Sequence record: MW741821.1
Direction: 5' to 3' (one strand)
DNA length: 64,000 nucleotides
From: Escherichia phage vB_EcoP_DE5
Part shown: positions 13,724 through 61,313 of the stretch, piece by piece
Position numbering within the stretch: position 1 is the first letter of the stretch
Layout: each line of letters opens with the position of its first letter
Made by a program: the position numbers and the translations under genes
The notes under the pieces: model-generated
Database searches by the model: none
Told to the model about the DNA's origin: nothing
The model's input: only the letters and a program-made list of their open reading frames with translations

Positions 13724-14023
13724 TCACCACTCCTTACCGGTTGTAATCGTAGAGCCACCACACCACAATGCTGTATCAATAACAACATTATCCGGTGTAG
13801 ACTTCTCTTCGTTGATAGAAGGGTTAGCATTAGAACAGGTTGCTCCGTTCCATCGCATATCAATTTCACCAGAAGGAATCTTCTCACCCTTATGCCAGCG
13901 AGAAACACAAACACCTTCCACTGCTACTGCACACCATCCATCAGGACGGCTCTGTACGCAGCCTGTAAGGGCTATGCAGACAAGGAAGATACAGATTAAG
14001 GATATTACACCACCCCAACTCAT
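13724..14023 (-). CDS. putative lipoprotein (99 aa)
   Basis: Hydrophobic N-terminal segment ending in lipobox-like LTGC, then Cys-rich soluble part. Confidence 0.5.
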   Translation of the reverse strand: MSWGGVISLICIFLVCIALTGCVQSRPDGWCAVAVEGVCVSRWHKGEKIPSGEIDMRWNGATCSNANPSINEEKSTPDNVVIDTALWCGGSTITTGKEW

Positions 14024-14162: not shown

Positions 14163-14238
14163 GTGGTGCGCCCTACAGGACTCGAACCTGTAACCAATAG
14201 CTTAGAAGGCTACTGCTCTATCCATTGAGCTAAGAGCG
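14163..14238 (-). tRNA. tRNA-Arg (anticodon UCU)
   Basis: Hand-folded 76-nt cloverleaf on minus strand: acceptor GCGCUCU/AGGGCGC, D-arm GCUC/GAGC, anticodon stem GUAGC/GCUAU with loop CUUCUAA, T-arm ACAGG-UUCGAGU-CCUGU, discriminator A, encoded CCA. Confidence 0.75.
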
Positions 14239-14414
14239 CAGAATTATTTAGATCATATCTCGCTTGGTGATATGACCACATGTTTTACATCGAAGTATAT
14301 AACGAGTACCTGTGTCTTCTATTTGACCAATCTCATTATATATGTGTAAACGAACTTCTTTTATTGTCTCCCAATCATGCAGATGGAATAGACGTTTAAA
14401 CCACTTGAACATAA

Positions 14415-14708: not shown

Positions 14709-14907
14709 ATAAACCTAAGAATGTGGGACTGTAAGTTCCAGTACAAACAAACTCATCAAACAATGCGTTATAACTAGGCTTGATCTTCCAAGCCCATACA
14801 TAACCCATCTTGTCAATTGCAATGTAACGAGTGTTCAGAGGAACAGTCATCATTATACCATCAACTTCGATCACTTTAGTGATTGGTGCAGCTTGGAAGT
14901 TTTTCAT
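14656..14907 (-). CDS. hypothetical protein, paralog of 14415-14708
   Basis: ORF; similarity by eye to neighbour. Confidence 0.4.
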   Translation of the reverse strand: MKNFQAAPITKVIEVDGIMMTVPLNTRYIAIDKMGYVWAWKIKPSYNALFDEFVCTGTYSPTFLGLFGEFDGKHKIITLPACA

Positions 14908-15072
14908 ACTTTACCTTTGATAAAAATGTCATTACCACAGACACAGCATGAACGAACAACAGTAGCGCCACGCTGAACAATACGAACCTCTTCCTTAACC
15001 AGACTAATACGAGCACCGCAGCAAGGAGAGTTGACATAAGAGTAACCAGCTTGCGTATGTTTGATTATTTGC

Positions 15073-16930: not shown

Positions 16931-17245
16931 TTAATCCACCTTATTGGTAAGTCGAGCATTATCAACTACCTGAACAACAGTATCTTTTCTCAACATTGTT
17001 ATTCTATCCGAAGTGAGATCTACTACTACTCTTTCGTCAGGCTTCCAACTAGCTGAATAAACGGTTGAGGAATCTAGCTTTACTGTAAGATATATTTTAT
17101 TTTTAGGTGGAACAGTTTCAAAAACACTCCCCACCTTCAGGTCTTTCAGTTGCTTGACTACAGGGGCTGTATTAATATCATGCTTCATTGTTAATCTCCT
17201 GCTGTTTAGCAATAGCCACTCGCAAGTCTTCATTAGCACGAGCAA
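16931..17245 (-). CDS. small paralog-family protein (start probably internal at MKHDIN)
   Basis: L.DLKVGSVF motif as in family. Confidence 0.4.
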   Translation of the reverse strand: MLVLMKTCEWLLLNSRRLTMKHDINTAPVVKQLKDLKVGSVFETVPPKNKIYLTVKLDSSTVYSASWKPDERVVVDLTSDRITMLRKDTVVQVVDNARLTNKVD

Positions 17246-17474
17246 GGCGTAACACTTCGTGGTTGAGGTTCTGAAGACGCTTGTTTCTGTCCTCTACTTG
17301 CATAATAAGATCATTAAGTGTTACTTTAACTTTCTCATTATACATCTCATCCACTCGAACTAGGGATTTATACATTCTCTCCCAGCTTGCTGCTTTGTTT
17401 CTGAGAATAATAAATCCTAGAACGCTGATAGTTAAACAGCTTACAAAAAGGAATTTATATACTTCTAAAGTCAT
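17178..17474 (-). CDS. membrane-anchored coiled-coil protein (98 aa)
   Basis: N-terminal hydrophobic helix followed by charged heptad-like region. Confidence 0.4.
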   Translation of the reverse strand: MTLEVYKFLFVSCLTISVLGFIILRNKAASWERMYKSLVRVDEMYNEKVKVTLNDLIMQVEDRNKRLQNLNHEVLRLARANEDLRVAIAKQQEINNEA

Positions 17475-17673: not shown

Positions 17674-18063
17674 TTATTCCCTAGAGCTATTATCGAACAC
17701 TAAATCACCACAATACATAGGATTGGCATACCATTTTGGCACCCCTTCGCTCTTACTCTGAAAGTAAGTCCCACTGTACAGCGGAACATAATTCTTCTTA
17801 AGGGCACGTTTAGCTAGCCTCTCGCTTTCTCCAATGGCTTGCTTAGTCATCGGATTTTTATCACGAATCAGCTTTACATAACGTTTATAAGGTTTCTCCT
17901 GTTTTAATAGTACCGGAATCCACTCAAACTGGTTCTTTTGTCTTATCACCTGTTCAGCGGTCAGTTTTCGTTGGGCCATTCTATTTATCACGGTATCCGC
18001 AACTAAAGCCTTACATGCGGTTGGCTGATTCCCTGCCTCATAATAAATAGTCAATGTCAACAT
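17674..18063 (-). CDS. cell-wall hydrolase, SleB/CwlJ-like
   Basis: YYEAGNQ...ALVADTVINRM...QKNQFEW...PKWYANPMYCGDLVF matches the Hydrolase_2 pattern. Confidence 0.55.
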   Translation of the reverse strand: MLTLTIYYEAGNQPTACKALVADTVINRMAQRKLTAEQVIRQKNQFEWIPVLLKQEKPYKRYVKLIRDKNPMTKQAIGESERLAKRALKKNYVPLYSGTYFQSKSEGVPKWYANPMYCGDLVFDNSSRE

Positions 18064-18112
18064 TAGCTGTGCCGTTGTTATCAGAACTTGATACCTCCTG
18101 TTTTACGGGCAT

Positions 18113-18138: not shown

Positions 18139-18449
18139 AAACCTGAAAGCAACACATGACCGTTGCTATAAATACACTCGCAAATGCACTTACAGCAACG
18201 CAAAAAGCCGCTCAAAGGCGGCTATGCGGAAGCTTCAAATGGGGAGAGGGCACGACGCGACAGAAAGAGCGTCATAGTACTAAAAAGAGAGGCTATTGGA
18301 GAGGTTACTTATTGCCTTCCTTAATGCCTTGTTTTCTTGTTTAACCAATTCGTTTTCTTCTTGCAAGGATGCTACCAGATGGACCAGAACATCAACTACT
18401 GCATCACCTTGCCGCATCTCTCTGACTTTATTTAGAATCTCTGAATAAA

Positions 18450-39282: not shown

Positions 39283-39374
39283 GATAAGCCCCTTCGGGGG
39301 CTTTAGTAGTAAGTACCCTTAGTAAGTAATGAAACTAATATATCCCAAGAGGTTAATATATAGGAGACACTCAA

Positions 39375-39593
39375 ATGAAAATGATGAAACAAGCTGCATA
39401 TGGTTTAATATGTTTAGGCGCAGGTGTTGTGGTATCCACCGCAGTTCCTGTAGGCGCAGTTCATCCATTAGTAACTGTCCCTGCTCCAGTAGAGAAGCTC
39501 AGCTCTCAATGTAAGCAGAGAACAATTCAAAATAACTTAGTTGTTATTTGCCCTGATGCTGAATCTAACGCTCTGAGAAAGATACTACCTTAA
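39375..39593 (+). CDS. small membrane protein, candidate holin
   Basis: 72 aa with one hydrophobic segment (AAYGLICLGAGVVVSTAV) directly upstream of the lysozyme gene; positional inference. Confidence 0.3.
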   Translation: MKMMKQAAYGLICLGAGVVVSTAVPVGAVHPLVTVPAPVEKLSSQCKQRTIQNNLVVICPDAESNALRKILP

Positions 39594-39621
39594 TTTAAAG
39601 GGACTACAAAGGAGGTTAGAA

Positions 39622-40113
39622 ATGGATAACGTCGCATTGCCACCTGTACAACTAAACTTAAGCCCAGCTGGAATGGAATTCATCATGAAGCATGAGGGTA
39701 TGAGAACAAAGGCTTATAAAGATTCCGCAGGTATCTGGACTATATGTGTAGGGGCTACGCGCGATATGAATGGTTATCCGGTTAGACAAGGATTAACGTA
39801 TTCTATAGAGGATTGTCTAGCTCTGCTAGATAGAGACACACAAGACTCTGTTCGTGCTACTCAGAAGAACATAAAGGTTCCTTTACTAGTTCATGAGTTT
39901 GATGCCCTCACTTCTTTCAACTTCAATGTTGGCAGTGGGGCTTTGAGCACATCTAAGTTAAGGAAGGTAATCAATGGAGATGTTAAGGGGGATGTTTATT
40001 CCGAATTTCTTCGTTGGGATAAAATAACGGTCAAGGGAGAGAAGCAGAGAAGTCAGGGTCTTCATAATAGAAGAGTTGCAGAAGCTAATCTTTACACCGA
40101 AGGTAAATATTAA
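39622..40113 (+). CDS. lysozyme (GH24, T4-lysozyme-like) endolysin
   Basis: FIMKHEGMRTKAYKDSAGIWTICVGATRD signature of phage lysozyme. Confidence 0.75.
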   Translation: MDNVALPPVQLNLSPAGMEFIMKHEGMRTKAYKDSAGIWTICVGATRDMNGYPVRQGLTYSIEDCLALLDRDTQDSVRATQKNIKVPLLVHEFDALTSFNFNVGSGALSTSKLRKVINGDVKGDVYSEFLRWDKITVKGEKQRSQGLHNRRVAEANLYTEGKY

Positions 40114-40125
40114 TGGAGGTGCCTT

Positions 40126-40929
40126 TTGGCTATCGAAACTAATGCGGTAGTTATTACCGACTTAAACCCGCTCTATCCTAGAGACAGGGATTACATCTAC
40201 GAAGGGGCGGCTCAAATCCGCCTCATTAAACAAACGTTACAGAACACATTCCCCAATGTCACAGAACCAGTTGATATTGATTCTGACACTTTTAAGATTA
40301 TGTCAGAGAAGCTTAAGTTTACTGGTGATGCAATGGATGTTGGCGGTCTAATGATTAAGAACGTCACTCCGGGAACTGGTGACAAAGATGTTGTTACTAA
40401 AGGTCAGATGGAAGCGTTCATGAAGAACTGGATGGAGAATAAAGTATTCCGTATCGGCGCTTACTATATCACTGAAGAAGATATTAACCCCGGTGATTCC
40501 ATCTCCTTAGGGTTTGGCTCTTGGGCTAAAGTGACTGGTGTTATCATGGGTACTGGTGTAGTAAACCCTGATGGTTCTGTCCCTAATGCTCAGAGAGTTG
40601 AGTTCCAAGCAGGTGGTACTGGTGGTCGTGTCTTCAATACTATTCGAACTGAGAACGTACCTTTGATGACAGTTAATGGCTCCAGCTTCTCTCTATCCAG
40701 TAATACTCACAGTCACAACATGGTATTTGGTCGTGGAGATGCTAGTGGTCATAACAGCTCGCCAAACTGGTATAGTCCGGGTGGTGGATACAGTCAGAGA
40801 ACTGATAATGATACTCACACTCATACAATCTCTGGTAGTGTAAGTCTTGGTCGTGATGATATCTCTCGTCAACCTATTAACACTTTGCCACCATTCAGAG
40901 CAGCTCACATTTGGAGACGTATTAGCTAA
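40126..40929 (+). CDS. virion structural protein (267 aa)
   Basis: Gly/Thr/Ser-rich ORF in tail module. Confidence 0.4.
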   Translation: MAIETNAVVITDLNPLYPRDRDYIYEGAAQIRLIKQTLQNTFPNVTEPVDIDSDTFKIMSEKLKFTGDAMDVGGLMIKNVTPGTGDKDVVTKGQMEAFMKNWMENKVFRIGAYYITEEDINPGDSISLGFGSWAKVTGVIMGTGVVNPDGSVPNAQRVEFQAGGTGGRVFNTIRTENVPLMTVNGSSFSLSSNTHSHNMVFGRGDASGHNSSPNWYSPGGGYSQRTDNDTHTHTISGSVSLGRDDISRQPINTLPPFRAAHIWRRIS

Positions 40930-40938
40930 GGAGGAATT

Positions 40939-43900
40939 ATGGCGCTGTATCCAATAAAGTCGCTAGGTGCTGTAGGCGTTATCGCTGATCAGGCTCCGAC
41001 AGACTTAGCTCCTAATGCTTTCACTAATGCTATAAATGCTCGATTTGTTGAGCAGAGAGTCTTTAAGACGGGGGGCAATGCCCCTCTTTCTTATGTAGAT
41101 GAAGATAAGGATTTAACCCCTCTGTCTTTCGTTTCTATGCCTTTCGATTATTATAGCGCAGGTAATAGCTTTCTTGTTGTAGGTACAAATAAGAAGTTAT
41201 ATAAACTGACAGATGAAAGCTTGACTGATATTAGCCGTAAGGTTGCTACAGTCACTAAGAAGGCTTCTGCCTCAATTAAGATTTATCCAGTTGTTTCTCA
41301 GATCGTTCCTAAAGAATCAACTATCTCAATGAACTTCAATCAGACCAAGAATCTAGAGGTTTCTCTTCTCCCTGCTGATGCTAATAATACTGATCTTATT
41401 TGGGAGGTTAGTAACTCAGCCTATGGAAGTATTACGGTAGACCCTAGTGACTCTAAACTTGCTACTCTAACATCTTTTGAGAAAGAGGGTAATCTTGTAG
41501 TAACTATCTCTACTGCCAATGAATCCGTAGTGGCTCAGATTGCTGTTAATATCATAGATGGTGATTCAGGCATCTTCTTGAGTCAAGATACTGTTACAAT
41601 TCGTAAGGGAGGGACTACTACTCTCACGGCTGTTACTGGCAAGACTCCTGTAACTTGGTCCAGCAGTAACGCTTCTATTGTATCCGTAACTCCTAACGCC
41701 AACTCTTTAACTGCTGTCATTACAGCGAATGGAGAAGGTAATGTAACAATCACTGCTGACAACGGAACTAAGACTGCTTCTTGTGAGATTGTTTCTATCC
41801 CTCAGATTGATAGTATCTCTTTAAGCCAGTCAGATGTTACTGTGAGTAGAGGTTCTCAGTATATCTTAACTGCTACCCTTTCTCCTGCTAACGCCCCTAA
41901 TCAAAATATTACTTGGACCTCTTCTAATCCAAATATTGCAACAGTATCAGGGACTAGCACACAAGGGACGATCAACGCTCTACTTGCTGGTTTTACTGAG
42001 ATTACAGCTACCACTGAAGAAGGTAACAGAGTTGCTGTCTGTACTGTACGTGTGGACTTAGCTGGAAGGACAATGAGAACAAGTGCTATGGCATTTGCCG
42101 CTCCTGTATCAGAGTCAGTAGAAACTCAAGAGGAAGAAGTAGTAACTCCTCCTGAAAGTGAAGAGACGGTTTATTTTGCTGAGCCTACATCCGGTATTGA
42201 TACGTCAGGGATGTACGAAGGTAATAACTTCTATGACTACTCTAACGTGAATGACATTGAAGGTTTTGCAAGAGCTTCTTTACTGGCAACCCCTTTGTCA
42301 TCTGTAACCTTAGATGTTGTCAGCGCCTCACTTGATGTTGGTGAAGAGATTGTTATCACAGCTACAGCTTCTCCAGAAGGTGATTATTCTTATCAGTGGT
42401 CTGTTGATAAGACTGGTTATGTTTCTACAACTTCAGTCACTGGTAAATCTATCAAACTGGTTGCTCTTCGTAAAGGAGAGATTAACGTAACATGTACTGT
42501 CAGTCAGATGACTCAGAAGGATTACGATGCTTTTGATGATTATCCTTGGTATCACGCTGTTATCTCTAACTGTGCAGTTGCTACAACTCACTATGAAACT
42601 CCTCAGGTAAAAGAATTCGAATCAGAATACTTTGTAGATCTTCCGGGATGGGGTGAGCAAACAGTTGTCGATAATGACGGGAACCCTTCAGTCAAGAAGT
42701 TTAACTGGAAATGTGAAAGAGTAAGATCTTTTAACAACCGTCTTTTTGCTCTAAACATGAGAGAGGCTAACGCTTCTGGTGTTACCACTAACTACCCGCT
42801 TCGTCTTCGTTGGTCTAACTTTGCCAATGAGAATAAGGCTCCTACACTGTGGGATGACTTTGCCTATGATCGAGTTGTGTCTTCGGACTTAGCTTCTAAC
42901 ATCGTAGGGCAGACTCAGGCTCTAGAGAATGGATATGCTGGTTACATTGACCTAGCCGATTCTAATGGTAGCTTGATTGATATCCTACCTCTTAAAGACT
43001 ACTTGTTCGTTTATACAGAGTTTGAAACGTATATTGGTTCTCCGACTAATAACACGTACCAACCTCTAATGTTCAAGAAGCTCTTTAACGACTCTGGTAT
43101 CCTCGCTCCCGAGTGTGTGGTTGAAGTAGAAGGTAGTCACTTCGTAGTTACTCAGAACGATGTAATCTTACACAATGGTGCAACCAAGAAGTCAATTGCA
43201 TCTAACCGTGTTAAGAACATGCTGATTAATGAGGTGTGTCTGGTTAACCCTCTAGCAACTCGAGTACACTTGCATCAGGATAAGAAAGAAGTTTGGGTTC
43301 TGTACGTAGGTCCGGGAGAACCAAAAGAAAGCTTCGCTTGTACTAAAGCTGCTGTATGGAATTATGAGTTTGATACTTGGTCTTTCCGTACTATCCCATA
43401 TGCTCAGTGTATTGGTCTGGTTGATCCTCCTGTTTTAGAAAGAGGTCCAATCTGGTCTGACTTCCAAGAAATCACTTGGGATGACCCATCTATTAAAGAA
43501 CTCGTTTGGAGAAAGGATGCAACAAACTTTAGACAGAGGGTTACGATAGTAGGTTCATTCTTGAAGGGATTCTATCAAGTGGATGTAGGTGCTCTTGATT
43601 ACTTCTATGACAGGCTAAATGATGTTGTTATAGAGAAGCCTCTGGAAATGAGGTTAGAGAGGACTGGTATAGATTTTGATAATGTGACGAATGAGTGGAA
43701 TCAGAAGCATATTAACAGATTCCGACCTCAGACAACTGGCTCGGGTACTTACATATTTGAAGCTGGTGGTAGTCAATTCTCAAATGAATATGGACACCCA
43801 CACACATCTAAGACATATACGATCGGTGTTGACAGGCACGTCTCGGTGAGACTGAACCATCCATACCTTTTCTATAATGTTATAGATAATGATGTTAACA

Positions 43901-46013: not shown

Positions 46014-46796
46014 ATGGCAATCAGAATGGGTATCGAAGAACTAGACCCAATGGTACAGCAAGCTTCAAAGAAGTATGGGATTCCTGCTGCTTTGATTCAT
46101 GCTGTCATCCAAAGAGAGTCCAGTGGTCGTCCTACAGTGGCCTCTGGAACTGGTCCTGTAGGTTTAATGCAGATCAGTAAAGGGTTGGCTAAAGATTACG
46201 GTTACAAACTAGAAGATAGACTTGACCCAGCAAAGAATATTGATATGGGCGCTCGTTACATAAGAGATAACTTAAAAGCTTTTAATGGTGATGTTAAGAA
46301 AGCAATGGTTGGTTATTCAGAAGGTATCGGTGGAGCTAAGCAAATGTTCGCTGGTAAAAAGGGGTTTACTCCACAAGCTCTTGACTCCATGAACAATAAA
46401 CACTTTCTTCCTTTCTATGGTGATGCAGCTTCTCAGATTGCTAACCCTGTTGGAGCTTTGCAAGCTGTTCAACCAGTCAATCAGTTTAGTCCTGACTTGT
46501 TAGATAGAGAGAAGGCCGCACAAGCTCCAACTCAGGCAGAGATTGCTGCTTCTAAGACAGGTGCTTTAGGTGGAAATCCAGTAGAGTTTTACTCTGATGA
46601 AGTGCAGGAAGGCGAAAATCAGAAACCTCAACAGAACTTTGGTAATGCAGTATTAGGGGTAGCTGCTATGCTTGCTGGTAAACCTCCCACTTCTCAAACA
46701 GTTCAGAGGGCAAGTGCACCACATGCAGCAGGTTCTCAGTACAGTCCACAAACACAAGCAGTGCTCAGACGTCTGGCTAGCATTGGTGTAAAGTAA
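46014..46796 (+). CDS. lytic transglycosylase (SLT domain) virion protein
   Basis: AVIQRESSGRPTVASGTGPVGLMQISKGLAKDYGY matches SLT catalytic motif (ES...GxxGLMQ). Confidence 0.7.
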   Translation: MAIRMGIEELDPMVQQASKKYGIPAALIHAVIQRESSGRPTVASGTGPVGLMQISKGLAKDYGYKLEDRLDPAKNIDMGARYIRDNLKAFNGDVKKAMVGYSEGIGGAKQMFAGKKGFTPQALDSMNNKHFLPFYGDAASQIANPVGALQAVQPVNQFSPDLLDREKAAQAPTQAEIAASKTGALGGNPVEFYSDEVQEGENQKPQQNFGNAVLGVAAMLAGKPPTSQTVQRASAPHAAGSQYSPQTQAVLRRLASIGVK

Positions 46797-58387: not shown

Positions 58388-59873
<1,486 letters not shown>

Positions 59874-59874
<1 letters not shown>

Positions 59875-60233
59875 TATTCTATTCCACGCTCTTTCAGAGC
59901 TTCTAACAATCCATTGTGATTAGCAGCACATTCTGTGTACTGGTCCTGATACCACTCCAACGTAGTGGCTAGTGCTTTTCCTTGAGCACTTTCTAAAAGA
60001 GGTAGGTCAACCCTACATTCAGCTTTTAGGTTTGTTGGTAAGGGCATTGATTGCCTGCTGTTGTCGCTCATTGAACAAGCTGACATACTCATCACTAGCG
60101 CAGACATTATAAAAAACTGGTTTAGTTTTCTCATAATGCATCTCTTTATAAACGGTTTCCGTGTTCTTCTTCCAGTTAGATAAACCGGTAAGAACTCTCT
60201 GAGCAACTTCATCAGCTGCCCTACTTCTTTCAA
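59874..60233 (-). CDS. putative o-spanin (outer-membrane lipoprotein), start probably internal
   Basis: Internal Met followed by signal and lipobox-like MSAC; gene begins inside the i-spanin ORF in another frame. Confidence 0.4.
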
Positions 60234-60393
60234 TCTCTAACTCTTGTTGATGCTTTTCTTTATCCAGATTGTTACTGTCTGTTCTGTACTCATTAAACTT
60301 CATGCCACCAAAGAATACAAGAGCTGAAAAGATAACAAATCCTAGATTATCACTTAAAGTGCTTTGCATATTGACTCCAACGAAAAAAGCCAC
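60019..60393 (-). CDS. putative i-spanin
   Basis: N-terminal TM segment LGFVIFSALVFFGG then coiled-coil periplasmic domain; overlapped by lipoprotein ORF. Confidence 0.45.
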   Translation of the reverse strand: MAFFVGVNMQSTLSDNLGFVIFSALVFFGGMKFNEYRTDSNNLDKEKHQQELEIERSRAADEVAQRVLTGLSNWKKNTETVYKEMHYEKTKPVFYNVCASDEYVSLFNERQQQAINALTNKPKS

Positions 60394-60395
60394 CC
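60373..60395 (-). terminator. intrinsic terminator after SSB gene
   Basis: AGCCACC-UCCG-GGUGGCU hairpin followed by six U on minus strand. Confidence 0.6.
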
Positions 60396-60426
60396 GGAGG
60401 TGGCTAAGCTATAACAAGGAGAGTTA

Positions 60427-61232: not shown

Positions 61233-61241
61233 TATACATTA
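61233..61241 (-). promoter_or_regulatory. TAATGTATA promoter-like motif oriented toward SSB operon
   Basis: Reverse complement TATACATTA, 59 nt upstream of SSB start; part of palindrome ATGTATA-G-TATACAT. Confidence 0.45.
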
Positions 61242-61304: not shown

Positions 61305-61313
61305 TAATGTATA
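61305..61313 (+). promoter_or_regulatory. TAATGTATA promoter-like motif, plus orientation
   Basis: Exact motif in a 400-nt intergenic region with no plus-strand gene downstream. Confidence 0.35.

Follow-up and report, generated by a model that had tools for sequence, protein, structure and literature searches.

The window, which is the whole 64,000-nucleotide stretch of DNA analyzed here (Escherichia phage vB_EcoP_DE5, record MW741821.1), is likely to carry the standard Kuravirus lysis and entry apparatus, divided among several transcription units. The phage is a Kuravirus of the phiEco32/SU10 type with E. coli as its host, and its nucleotide identity to SU10, MN03, and YF01 is 97-98%. An earlier note on this DNA had described the lysis functions as dispersed. 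This was confirmed, and all the open reading frames (ORFs) named there were found at or near their coordinates, with each domain call being correct. For this genus, the scattered arrangement of the lysis genes has been described in both annotations and publications and is not new; for this reason, the finding is ordinary, the doubtful labels aside. Because such a layout is also routine in virulent phages, the value of the analysis is mainly corrective. The virion-associated enzyme is corrected to an SLT protein. The weak labels within the Kuravirus records are 'SAR-endolysin', 'DNA helicase', and the position-based 'holin', together with weak o-spanin calls in the SU10 RefSeq record and in 7-11.

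Gene content, domains, motifs, and conservation were determined for the window itself, and virion status is established for SU10. For the timing, the topology, and the hole formation during lysis, we infer the following pathway. Late in infection, the tail-module operon would produce a soluble GH24 muramidase, which would accumulate in the cytoplasm because it has no export signal. A 72-aa membrane protein would most likely insert with the N-terminus in and the C-terminus out and would allow GH24 to reach the wall, a holin function with a class-III-like topology. An overlapped i-spanin/o-spanin pair, whose unit has a phage-sigma-type promoter element at its head, would disrupt the outer membrane. 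An SLT transglycosylase would be packaged as an ejection protein and cut the wall at entry, as has been shown for SU10. No experiments on any Kuravirus lysis gene, and neither a muralytic assay nor a lysis requirement for a Kuravirus lysin, were found in the searched literature. Kuraviruses are under development for use in phage therapy and in food biocontrol, and their lysin could serve as an enzybiotic, so that the endolysin gene and its need of an export partner are worth knowing.

The first two genes lie side by side in the tail module:
39375 to 39593, plus strand: 72-aa 'holin', counterpart of SU10 gp14; phrog_11161 (E 3e-50), labelled 'holin'
39622 to 40113, plus strand: GH24 (T4-type) muramidase, 163 aa, soluble, counterpart of SU10 gp15; PF00959

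The endolysin of the window is probably the GH24 protein, as judged from its domain and active-site residues. The match to PF00959 Phage_lysozyme was 111.7 bits (E 3.7e-32; cutoff 22.3), and the catalytic triad E25-x8-D34-x5-T40 is intact in the translation, so that the GH24 lysozyme called earlier at this place is verified. Endolysins in the PDB were also matched (8APP, E 1e-27; 7M5I, E 4e-25). The two genes are flanked by long and short tail-fibre genes. The earlier note had placed them between tailspike and tail genes; the position is right, but the 'tailspike' is a long tail fibre with a Peptidase_S74 chaperone domain. The GC content of the holin-lysozyme pair (0.40-0.42) did not deviate from the neighbouring values and gave no sign of a recent horizontal transfer.

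The 72-aa protein begins with a basic N-terminus, followed by a hydrophobic segment rich in Gly and Ala (about residues 7-29), a linker rich in Pro, and a near-invariant C-terminal segment, which is where conservation is highest. Hydropathy analysis gave a single hydrophobic segment, with a 19-residue Kyte-Doolittle maximum of 2.15. Cys46 and Cys59 both sit in the C-terminal segment and are invariant in the alignments. AF2 predicted, at low confidence (mean pLDDT 54), a helix at residues 3-23 and a hairpin at residues 47-58 between both Cys. The C-terminus is probably a conserved Cys-flanked hairpin located in the periplasm, and a class-III-like topology is possible. Homologues of the protein fall into only three 50%-identity clusters among 1.8 billion proteins. 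In relatives, the gene is invariably directly 5' of GH24, even at 40-58% identity and with other fibre genes; in the window it ends 28 nt before GH24. With its small size, its hydrophobic segment as a predicted TMD, and its gene beside that of the endolysin, the 72-aa protein fits the general description of a holin; the charged cytoplasmic C-terminal tail of class I and class II holins was not found. The name 'holin' was given to it on position alone.

Several of these features also suit a different function, which we consider possible but rather less probable than holin function. The 72-aa protein would then be exported by Sec and cut after Ala28, leaving a periplasmic 44-aa mini-protein stapled by a disulphide, with a role for example as a lysis regulator, an antiholin-like sensor, or a lysozyme partner. 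For the ZCEC16 homologue, SignalP 6 and DeepTMHMM reportedly give a signal peptide only: in a 2026 paper, a signal peptide within the first 30 residues, and no TMD, is predicted for ORF15, a homologue of the 72-aa protein (PMC13417854). The invariant Ala28, with Val26 or a Thr two positions earlier, fits a signal-peptidase site (-3/-1 V-x-A). The C-terminal 34 residues are near-invariant with the two invariant Cys around the predicted hairpin, dN is 0.17 in the C-terminal part vs 0.43 in the N-terminal part, and a charged tail in the cytoplasm, as holins typically have, is absent. For a disposable signal peptide, however, the hydrophobic segment is unusually conserved. Seven positions (Q6, Y9, G10, C13, G17, A23, and A28) are invariant even at 40% identity and S21 is nearly so, with C13, G17, and S21 forming a small-xxx-small stripe on the helix. 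An uncharged run of 20-33 residues, and the lack of a basic n-region in one homologue, both speak against export and cleavage. The genomic context also argues for the holin: the 72-aa protein is the sole membrane protein of the late gene block, no other holin-family match was found among the window ORFs, small membrane ORFs included, and GH24 itself carries no signal for export. If the 72-aa protein were a secreted mini-protein, the true hole-former would still have to be named, and the route of the soluble GH24 across the inner membrane would need another account. A wider proposal, that the Kuravirus 'holin' is a Sec-exported, disulphide-stapled mini-protein obligatorily coupled to the signal-less GH24 and, separately, that the SleB-like protein described below has a non-lysis role, is unlikely as a whole. 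A fusion of the 72-aa ORF to GH24 by frameshift or read-through, as a source of a signal peptide, was rejected because the frame relation differs among relatives (offset mod 3 of 1 in the window, 2 in L006, and 0 in both L010 and L009).

The spanin genes are located on the other strand, within the following features:
59874 to 60134, minus strand: o-spanin, 86 aa, outer-membrane lipoprotein with signal MRKLNQFFIMSALVMSMSA ending before the Cys; phrog_2425 (E 9e-26)
60019 to 60369, minus strand: i-spanin, 116 aa, N-terminal TMD and periplasmic helical domain; phrog_1152 'Rz-like spanin' (E 4e-37)
60388 to 60405, minus strand: terminator-like hairpin and T-run, separating the 248-aa gene from the i-spanin
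61233 to 61241, minus strand: phiEco32 gp36-dependent promoter element TAATGTATA, exact match, 5' of the 248-aa gene

The overlapped spanin pair noticed earlier at 59874-60393, 20 kb from GH24, was borne out and refined to these coordinates, and the macro domain gene reported beside it encodes a Macro domain protein at 59434-59874. The likely start of the i-spanin is ATG 60369 with a GGAG ribosome-binding site ahead, and the alternative GTG 60393 falls within the hairpin. Its TMD is LGFVIFSALVFFGGM. The o-spanin is contained in the ORF 59874-60233; it has the lipobox MSAC and a Ser, not an Asp, after the lipidated Cys. The o-spanin begins inside the i-spanin gene in a different frame and runs past its end, giving an overlap of 116 nt (60019-60134). 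The TMD of the i-spanin, the lipobox of the o-spanin, and the gene overlap together point to a two-component spanin of the overlapped type. The phiEco32 i-spanin was placed in the JH2 family by Kongari 2018, with its architecture listed as 'Overlapped'; the phiEco32 o-spanin is listed in the same work and the pair is catalogued in SpaninDB. SU10 gp035 carries the name 'Rz-like spanin'.

The spanin-macro-sigma unit is headed by the 248-aa gene, whose product has a homologue in 7-11 gene 48 (E 1e-55). The gp36 promoter consensus has been published, 7-11 gene 48 corresponds to a late-promoter-proximal gene of phiEco32, and P48 of 7-11, at the homologue of the 248-aa gene, is a validated late promoter (PMC8948821). 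The exact TAATGTATA element at 61233-61241 is thus a candidate promoter of the spanin unit. When one mismatch was allowed, the gp36-type motif was observed 21 times vs 21.4 expected, which is chance frequency. A possible promoter of this type just 5' of the 72-aa gene (TAATATATA, 39354-39362) was a one-mismatch match only and was discarded.

An additional hydrolase gene is found within the early region:
17178 to 17474, minus strand: 98-aa protein, N-terminal TMD and helical charged tail, 3' of the SleB-like gene
17674 to 18084, minus strand: Hydrolase_2 (SleB/CwlJ-type) single-domain protein; PF07486
18119 to 18138, minus strand: intrinsic terminator directly 5' of the SleB-like gene
18206 to 18223: second terminator 5' of the SleB-like gene

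The SleB-like protein is 129 aa long from ATG 18063, which has no SD ahead, or 136 aa long from the in-frame CTG at 18084-18082; this CTG (CUG) is probably the start. The protein scored 32.2 bits against PF07486 Hydrolase_2 (cutoff 27), and 9/9 scanned homologues match the family (best E 1e-16). Its N-terminal motif Y-x-E-(A/S)-x-G includes an invariant E9, whose counterpart in the alignment to SleB 4F55/4FET is the YGES Glu. This Glu is presumably the catalytic residue, following the SleB literature. A profile search of the PDB returned SleB at E 0.3-0.8 only, which is not significant by itself, and a single-sequence search of the PDB gave no match. AF2 with a 10-sequence alignment gave a mean pLDDT of 45, too low for a usable model of the fold. 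Like the SleB/CwlJ spore-cortex lytic enzymes (4F55, 4FET), the protein belongs to the Hydrolase_2 catalytic-domain family with the aligned Glu9; unlike them, it has neither an N-terminal peptidoglycan-binding domain nor a signal peptide, and the host is Gram-negative and non-sporulating. The gene is under strong purifying selection (dN/dS 0.08-0.13). The terminator 5' of it carries a compensatory change from G-C to U-A in PAS59, and a different hairpin and T-run stand in its place in L019.

Salmonella phage 7-11 and Privateer (Grimontviridae), which are sister C3 podophages of the window phage, were compared with it. Both carry the SleB-like gene with a terminator ahead (annotated in 7-11) in an equivalent early-region neighbourhood, and the 7-11 homologue was matched at E 2.5e-11. 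Of the lysis and hydrolase genes compared, only the SleB-like gene is common to both families. No homologues of GH24, the 72-aa protein, or the SLT protein were found in 7-11/Privateer. The endolysin there is a Peptidase_M15_4 protein encoded beside a phosphoesterase gene (7-11 gp050), as opposed to GH24 in the window, and the spanins are unrelated to those of the window and are located at the late operon end. The 7-11 o-spanin gene has no annotation. The holin-like multi-TMD protein 7-11 gp113 was considered and set aside, as it has no homologue in the window.

The SleB-like gene is conserved and tightly throttled, with its catalytic Glu kept, and its product is not counted as the endolysin. 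The 'extra SleB-like hydrolase' had been listed earlier among the lysis functions; the hydrolase domain stands, but the lysis role is not directly supported. The gene is kept in a sister family that replaced the endolysin and spanins, and a function apart from the lysis cassette would fit this pattern at least as well. We consider it unlikely that the SleB-like protein serves as a second endolysin, redundant or ancestral, that uses the same holin. The kept catalytic Glu and the strong purifying selection would agree with it, and Hydrolase_2 is a recognised catalytic domain in lysins of phages with Gram-negative hosts. In 7-11 and in Cronobacter and Aeromonas phages, the homologues carry the annotation 'endolysin', and GH24 and Hydrolase_2 genes co-occur in other E. 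coli phages. However, the gene follows a conserved terminator in the early region and has an SD-less ATG and a probable CUG start, and it is kept in both families though each has a separate endolysin (GH24 here; Peptidase_M15_4 gp050 in 7-11). It also has no cross-family conserved membrane partner, and a muralytic assay was not found in the searched literature. It is not the sole endolysin of the sister family either, since 7-11 also encodes gp050.

The membrane coiled-coil protein reported next to this hydrolase does have a TMD and a helical charged tail. The 98-aa protein is a mere neighbour of the SleB-like gene, having no counterpart beside the 7-11 homologue gp111, and a lysis role is not supported; the PHROG/RefSeq name 'DNA helicase' is likewise unsupported. 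A second spanin-like pair at this site was rejected, as the overlapping downstream ORF has no lipobox and the charges of the TMD protein suggest the opposite topology. The actual function of the 72-aa protein is worth a small study, and so is the retention of the SleB-like gene in two families that exchanged all other lysis genes.

The virion-associated enzyme is encoded elsewhere:
46014 to 46796, plus strand: SLT lytic transglycosylase, 260 aa, counterpart of SU10 gp20; PF01464; phrog_12507

This third enzyme was missed in the first hydrolase inventory, of which GH24 and the SleB-like protein were borne out. It matches PF01464 at 83 bits (E 1.2e-23), and the Glu-Ser motif QRESSG is present. 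It shares 34.5% identity with the N-terminus of T7 gp16, which is the carrier of the entry SLT domain in that phage. SU10 gp20 (260 aa) is found in virions and leaves them along with the ejection proteins when the genome is released, as determined by SDS-PAGE and MS. By analogy with SU10, the SLT protein is assigned as a virion ejection protein for cell-wall penetration at entry, not for lysis. In the published SU10 virion analysis, gp14 (holin) and gp15 (lysin) are not structural and were not detected by MS, which covered the major gel bands, so that trace virion proteins could be missed. A crude PEG preparation of SU10 contained 34 proteins, and gp14, gp15, and the SleB-like protein were not among these; the non-detection of gp15 thus comes from two independent proteomic studies. 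The question raised earlier, which hydrolase is the endolysin and whether one is virion-associated, is largely settled by the published SU10 work: the virion muralytic enzyme is SLT gp20 and neither of the two hydrolases named.

Two other assignments of GH24 are very improbable. The MN03/MN05 records and the ZCEC16 paper make it a SAR endolysin partnered by a pinholin; the label is present in GenBank MT129653 and PMC13417854, and the Gly/Ala-rich helix in the protein encoded upstream could suggest a pinholin. Only 24 residues precede the catalytic Glu25, of which residues 11-24 align to the stretch just before the catalytic Glu in the soluble endolysins 8APP/7M5I, leaving about 10 to spare, and no weakly hydrophobic TM segment (about 18-20 residues) was found in front of the catalytic domain. 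The 19-residue Kyte-Doolittle maximum of the GH24 N-terminus is 0.95, well under that of the SAR sequences of P1 Lyz and R21 (about 2.1). The segment before Glu25 contains three Pro and Asp2 without a basic n-region, and a divergent homologue starts MIQYPLPPDQLHQSPAG. With its intact triad and too little sequence to hold a SAR domain, GH24 gives the 'SAR-endolysin' labels no support. The placement of the gene among tail-fibre genes might instead suggest a tail-associated entry enzyme, but GH24 is undetected in SU10 virions and crude preparations and absent from the SU10 cryo-EM tail model, SLT gp20 already fills this role, and unrelated small genes occupy the equivalent slot in 7-11/SE131.

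Compared with the S-R-Rz/Rz1 genes of lambda, the window likewise encodes a cytoplasmic soluble muralytic enzyme, a membrane protein upstream of it, and a TMD and lipoprotein spanin pair. Unlike in lambda, the genes do not share a cassette; the spanins, 20 kb off on the opposite strand, are of the overlapped and not the embedded type; the protein encoded upstream has a single hydrophobic segment vs three TMDs; and the enzyme is a GH24 muramidase vs a transglycosylase. In T4 and T7, the endolysin, holin, and spanin genes occupy separate loci, with the transcription programme coordinating them; the lysis families differ from those of the window. The 'extra' hydrolase of T7, gp3.5, is an amidase and also a regulator of RNA polymerase. 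T4 holin T (class III), which has a large periplasmic domain, and antiholin RI resemble the 72-aa protein in the single N-terminal hydrophobic segment and the predicted periplasmic C-terminus with conserved Cys; the periplasmic part is about 44 aa vs 163 aa in holin T, and there is no sequence similarity. The closest systems are phiEco32 and vB_EcoP_SU10, in which the genes, order, and spacing are identical at 97-100% identity (gp14, gp15, gp20, gp035). The SU10 RefSeq o-spanin call (gp034, 57 aa) is truncated and without a signal peptide. SU10 also has an HNH endonuclease inserted 5' of the spanins, and nothing essential differs from the window.

The lysis genes are dispersed as the earlier note had described, and every ORF it named is present in the window with the domain assigned to it. 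The GH24 lysozyme (39622-40113, plus strand; 163 aa) matches Pfam Phage_lysozyme at E 3.7e-32, and the candidate holin beside it is a 72-aa protein (39375-39593, plus strand) with a single hydrophobic segment. The second hydrolase, a 129-aa SleB-like protein (17674-18063, minus strand), scores above the Pfam Hydrolase_2 threshold (32.2 vs 27 bits). The spanin pair was found at 59874-60393, where ORF 60019-60393 belongs to phrog_1152, 'Rz-like spanin' (E 4e-37). The stretch 39300-41000 shares 97-98% nucleotide identity with vB_EcoP_SU10, MN03, YF01 and about 50 further records, and 48 more match at 60-90% identity. All matching records are phiEco32-like C3 podophages (Gordonclarkvirinae, genus Kuravirus and neighbours). 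The public annotation of this stretch runs in the order tail fibre, holin, endolysin, tail protein, and the SleB-like protein is named 'cell wall hydrolase' in some existing records. The scattered arrangement is a known, published Kuravirus gene layout, and such dispersal is nothing out of the ordinary for virulent phages (T4 and T7, for example). The holin-endolysin pair among morphogenesis genes was described in the Privateer and YF01 papers, and GH24 and Hydrolase_2 have previously been reported together in a single coliphage genome. The phiEco32 spanins are an overlapped two-component pair, with the i-spanin placed in the 'JH2' family alongside Felix O1 and the o-spanin grouped with NJ01, ECBP2 and KBNP1711 (Kongari et al. 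2018). The present analysis adds that the virion enzyme is an SLT protein, that the 'SAR-endolysin' label is unsupported and that the 'holin' name is positional, and it revises the status of the SleB-like gene.

The virion-associated enzyme is a third peptidoglycan hydrolase, missed in the earlier note. This SLT lytic transglycosylase (46014-46796, plus strand; PF01464, E 1.2e-23) shares 34.5% identity with the N-terminal domain of T7 gp16 and corresponds to the ejection protein gp20 of SU10. SU10 gp20-24 are in virions and missing from genome-release intermediates, and gp20, a transglycosylase, is presumed to break down the cell wall during entry (Siborova et al. 2022, PMC9509320). Neither gp14 (holin) nor gp15 (lysin) is structural or detected by MS (PMC9509320 Supplementary Table 1). 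Similarly, 34 proteins including gp20-24 were found in a crude PEG preparation of SU10 in which early and middle proteins were also visible; the holin, the lysozyme and any early product of about 15.0 kDa were not found (Mirzaei et al. 2014, PMC4281155). The SleB-like protein has a mass of about 15.0 kDa. The SU10 data indicate that the SLT protein is the virion enzyme, and neither the GH24 nor the SleB-like protein was found packaged.

The lysozyme carries the GH24 triad Glu25-x8-Asp34-x5-Thr40, and the solved endolysins 8APP and 7M5I match it at E 1e-27 and 4e-25. It was labelled a SAR endolysin in the 2026 phage ZCEC16 paper (PMC13417854) and likewise in the MN03 GenBank record, but the sequence gives this label no support. 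The catalytic Glu is preceded by just 24 residues, of which 11-24 correspond in the alignment to the segment directly before the catalytic Glu of the solved soluble endolysins; about 10 N-terminal residues (MDNVALPPVQ) are left over. The top 19-residue Kyte-Doolittle mean is 0.95; the SAR sequences of P1 Lyz and phage 21 R reach about 2.1. A divergent homologue has the N-terminus MIQYPLPPDQLHQSPAG. Because this short, weakly hydrophobic N-terminus does not fit the SAR label, the GH24 protein is probably a soluble cytoplasmic endolysin that would need a partner for reaching the wall. The GC content of the holin-lysozyme pair shows no sign of recent acquisition.

The 72-aa protein falls in phrog_11161, labelled 'holin'. 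Its family is tiny: a profile search across 1.8 billion representative proteins yielded only three 50%-identity clusters. In every contig recovered, its gene immediately precedes the GH24 gene inside an SU10-type tail module, and the adjacency is kept even in relatives whose fibre genes differ. The 'holin' name reflects gene position, and the conservation pattern of the protein is unusual. The C-terminal segment (KLSSQCKQRTIQNNLVVICPD.ES..LR), Cys46 and Cys59 included, hardly varies, and dN against the relative L006 is 0.43 in the hydrophobic segment and 0.17 in the C-terminal part. AF2 modelling, at low confidence (pLDDT 54), gives a helix at 3-23 and, after a disordered linker rich in Pro, a beta-hairpin at 47-58 flanked by both Cys; as modelled, such a hairpin would make sense only in an oxidising periplasm. 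That the protein is instead a secreted periplasmic mini-protein with a cleaved signal peptide is rather unlikely. SignalP 6 and DeepTMHMM, as reported by the ZCEC16 authors (PMC13417854), give a signal peptide only and no TMD, and Ala28 is invariant, with Val26 or Thr two positions earlier. However, Q6, Y9, G10, C13, G17, A23 and A28 are all invariant down to 40% identity, and C13, G17 and S21 form a small-xxx-small stripe typical of membrane helix-helix packing. The best reading is a putative functional holin with an N-in/C-out, class-III-like topology, because the helix residues are invariant and this is the only membrane protein of the late gene block. No holin-family match was found among the other small membrane ORFs of the window. 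The frame of the 72-aa ORF relative to the lysozyme gene is not conserved, which excludes a frameshift fusion of the two. If real, a 53-aa ORF at 14876-15037 (minus strand) would offer an alternative candidate for the holin. Two TMDs are predicted in it, joined by a basic loop, and its C-terminal tail is mildly charged; it has no PHROG match and may not be a real gene, since it seemingly overlaps, in a different frame, genes annotated in SU10.

The SleB-like gene codes for a protein under constraint, as its dN/dS is 0.13 vs EP335 and 0.08 vs PAS59. A Hydrolase_2 match was obtained in 9/9 scanned homologues (best E 1e-16). Glu9, invariant across all homologues, aligns in a weak profile match with the YGES-motif Glu of SleB (4F55, 4FET). 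Both a signal peptide and a cell-wall-binding domain are absent from the protein. Two terminators precede the gene:

18223-18206, minus strand, intrinsic terminator upstream of the SleB-like gene
18138-18119, minus strand, proximal intrinsic terminator directly upstream of the SleB-like gene

The proximal terminator is conserved: in PAS59 a compensatory change turns a G-C pair into U-A, in the distant relative L019 its place is taken by another hairpin with a T-run, and a terminator is annotated at the corresponding place in the 7-11 record. Expression looks throttled, since the gene would be read only by read-through. The annotated ATG (18063) has no Shine-Dalgarno before it and reads CTT in EP335 and PAS59. 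An in-frame CTG (18084-18082) has a conserved AGGAGG 9 nt ahead of it and coincides in the alignment with the TTG at which the 136-aa L019 homologue starts, and the nucleotide differences in the seven codons between CTG and ATG are all synonymous (3/3). Because of these features, the real product is probably a CUG-initiated protein of 136 aa.

In tblastn of all lysis-related proteins of the window against the complete genome of 7-11, a sister C3 podophage, the SleB-like protein has a homologue (E 2.5e-11), whereas no homologue was found for the 72-aa protein, GH24, SLT or either spanin. 7-11 carries its own Peptidase_M15_4 endolysin (gp050), adjoining the phosphoesterase gene, and its late operon ends with an overlapped spanin pair unrelated to that of the window. 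Between long and short fibre genes, SE131/7-11 have two small genes unrelated to the holin-lysozyme pair. Both families kept the SleB-like gene while exchanging endolysin and spanins, which argues against simple lysis-cassette membership. A redundant endolysin role is unlikely, and the enzyme may have a role outside lysis. The SleB-like gene is a conserved, apparently tightly throttled early gene shared with Grimontviridae, rather than an established lysis gene.

Other genes were also observed. The 98-aa protein at 17178-17474 (minus strand) has a TMD and a coiled coil; its name 'DNA helicase' (PHROG 12154, RefSeq SU10 and EP335) is not supported by the sequence. A 99-aa predicted lipoprotein of the early region (13724-14023, minus strand; signal peptide, lipobox LTGC, phrog_4281) may be the counterpart of the SU10 gp104 'putative lipoprotein' and could be a superinfection-exclusion candidate. 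The single tRNA-Arg (anticodon TCT; 14164-14239, minus strand) is as reported for other Kuraviruses.

In the spanin pair, ORF 59874-60233 holds an 86-aa lipoprotein with the N-terminus MRKLNQFFIMSALVMSMSAC, the lipobox MSAC and Ser after the lipidated Cys. The i-spanin more likely starts at ATG 60369, after a GGAG ribosome-binding site and in agreement with the SU10 gp035 annotation; the alternative GTG at 60393 falls inside a terminator-like hairpin. The two genes share 116 nt, read in different frames. In phiEco32, the phage sigma factor gp36 recognises the promoters (consensus tAATGTAtA) of all late and some middle genes (PMC8948821). The following elements were found near the lysis genes:

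61241-61233, minus strand, exact phiEco32 gp36-type promoter element TAATGTATA upstream of the 248-aa gene
60388-60405, minus strand, terminator-like hairpin between the 248-aa gene and the i-spanin
39286-39303, GC-rich hairpin AAGCCCCTTCGGGGGCTT directly after the long tail-fibre gene
39354-39362, one-mismatch gp36-type element TAATATATA, 13 nt before the 72-aa gene

After the exact element, the order is 248-aa gene, terminator-like hairpin, spanin pair, macro-domain gene and sigma gene. The 248-aa gene is homologous to 7-11 gene 48, whose late promoter was experimentally validated (PMC8948821). The hairpin and element before the 72-aa gene may mark a late transcription unit boundary, and the holin-lysozyme pair lies within the late plus-strand block. 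With one mismatch allowed, the motif occurs at chance frequency (21 observed vs 21.4 expected), so the promoter assignment rests on position and not on statistics. The scattered lysis genes could be coordinated via phage-sigma-type promoters. A second exact gp36-type copy lies on the opposite strand at 61305-61313, with no obvious gene downstream. SU10 gp034 (NC_027395 34451-34624; 4952-5125 of the SU10 region L014) is a 57-aa 5'-truncated o-spanin call without signal peptide. The 7-11 o-spanin (NC_015938 30143-30421; L015), unannotated in the public record, has the lipobox LMISGC and overlaps gp030.
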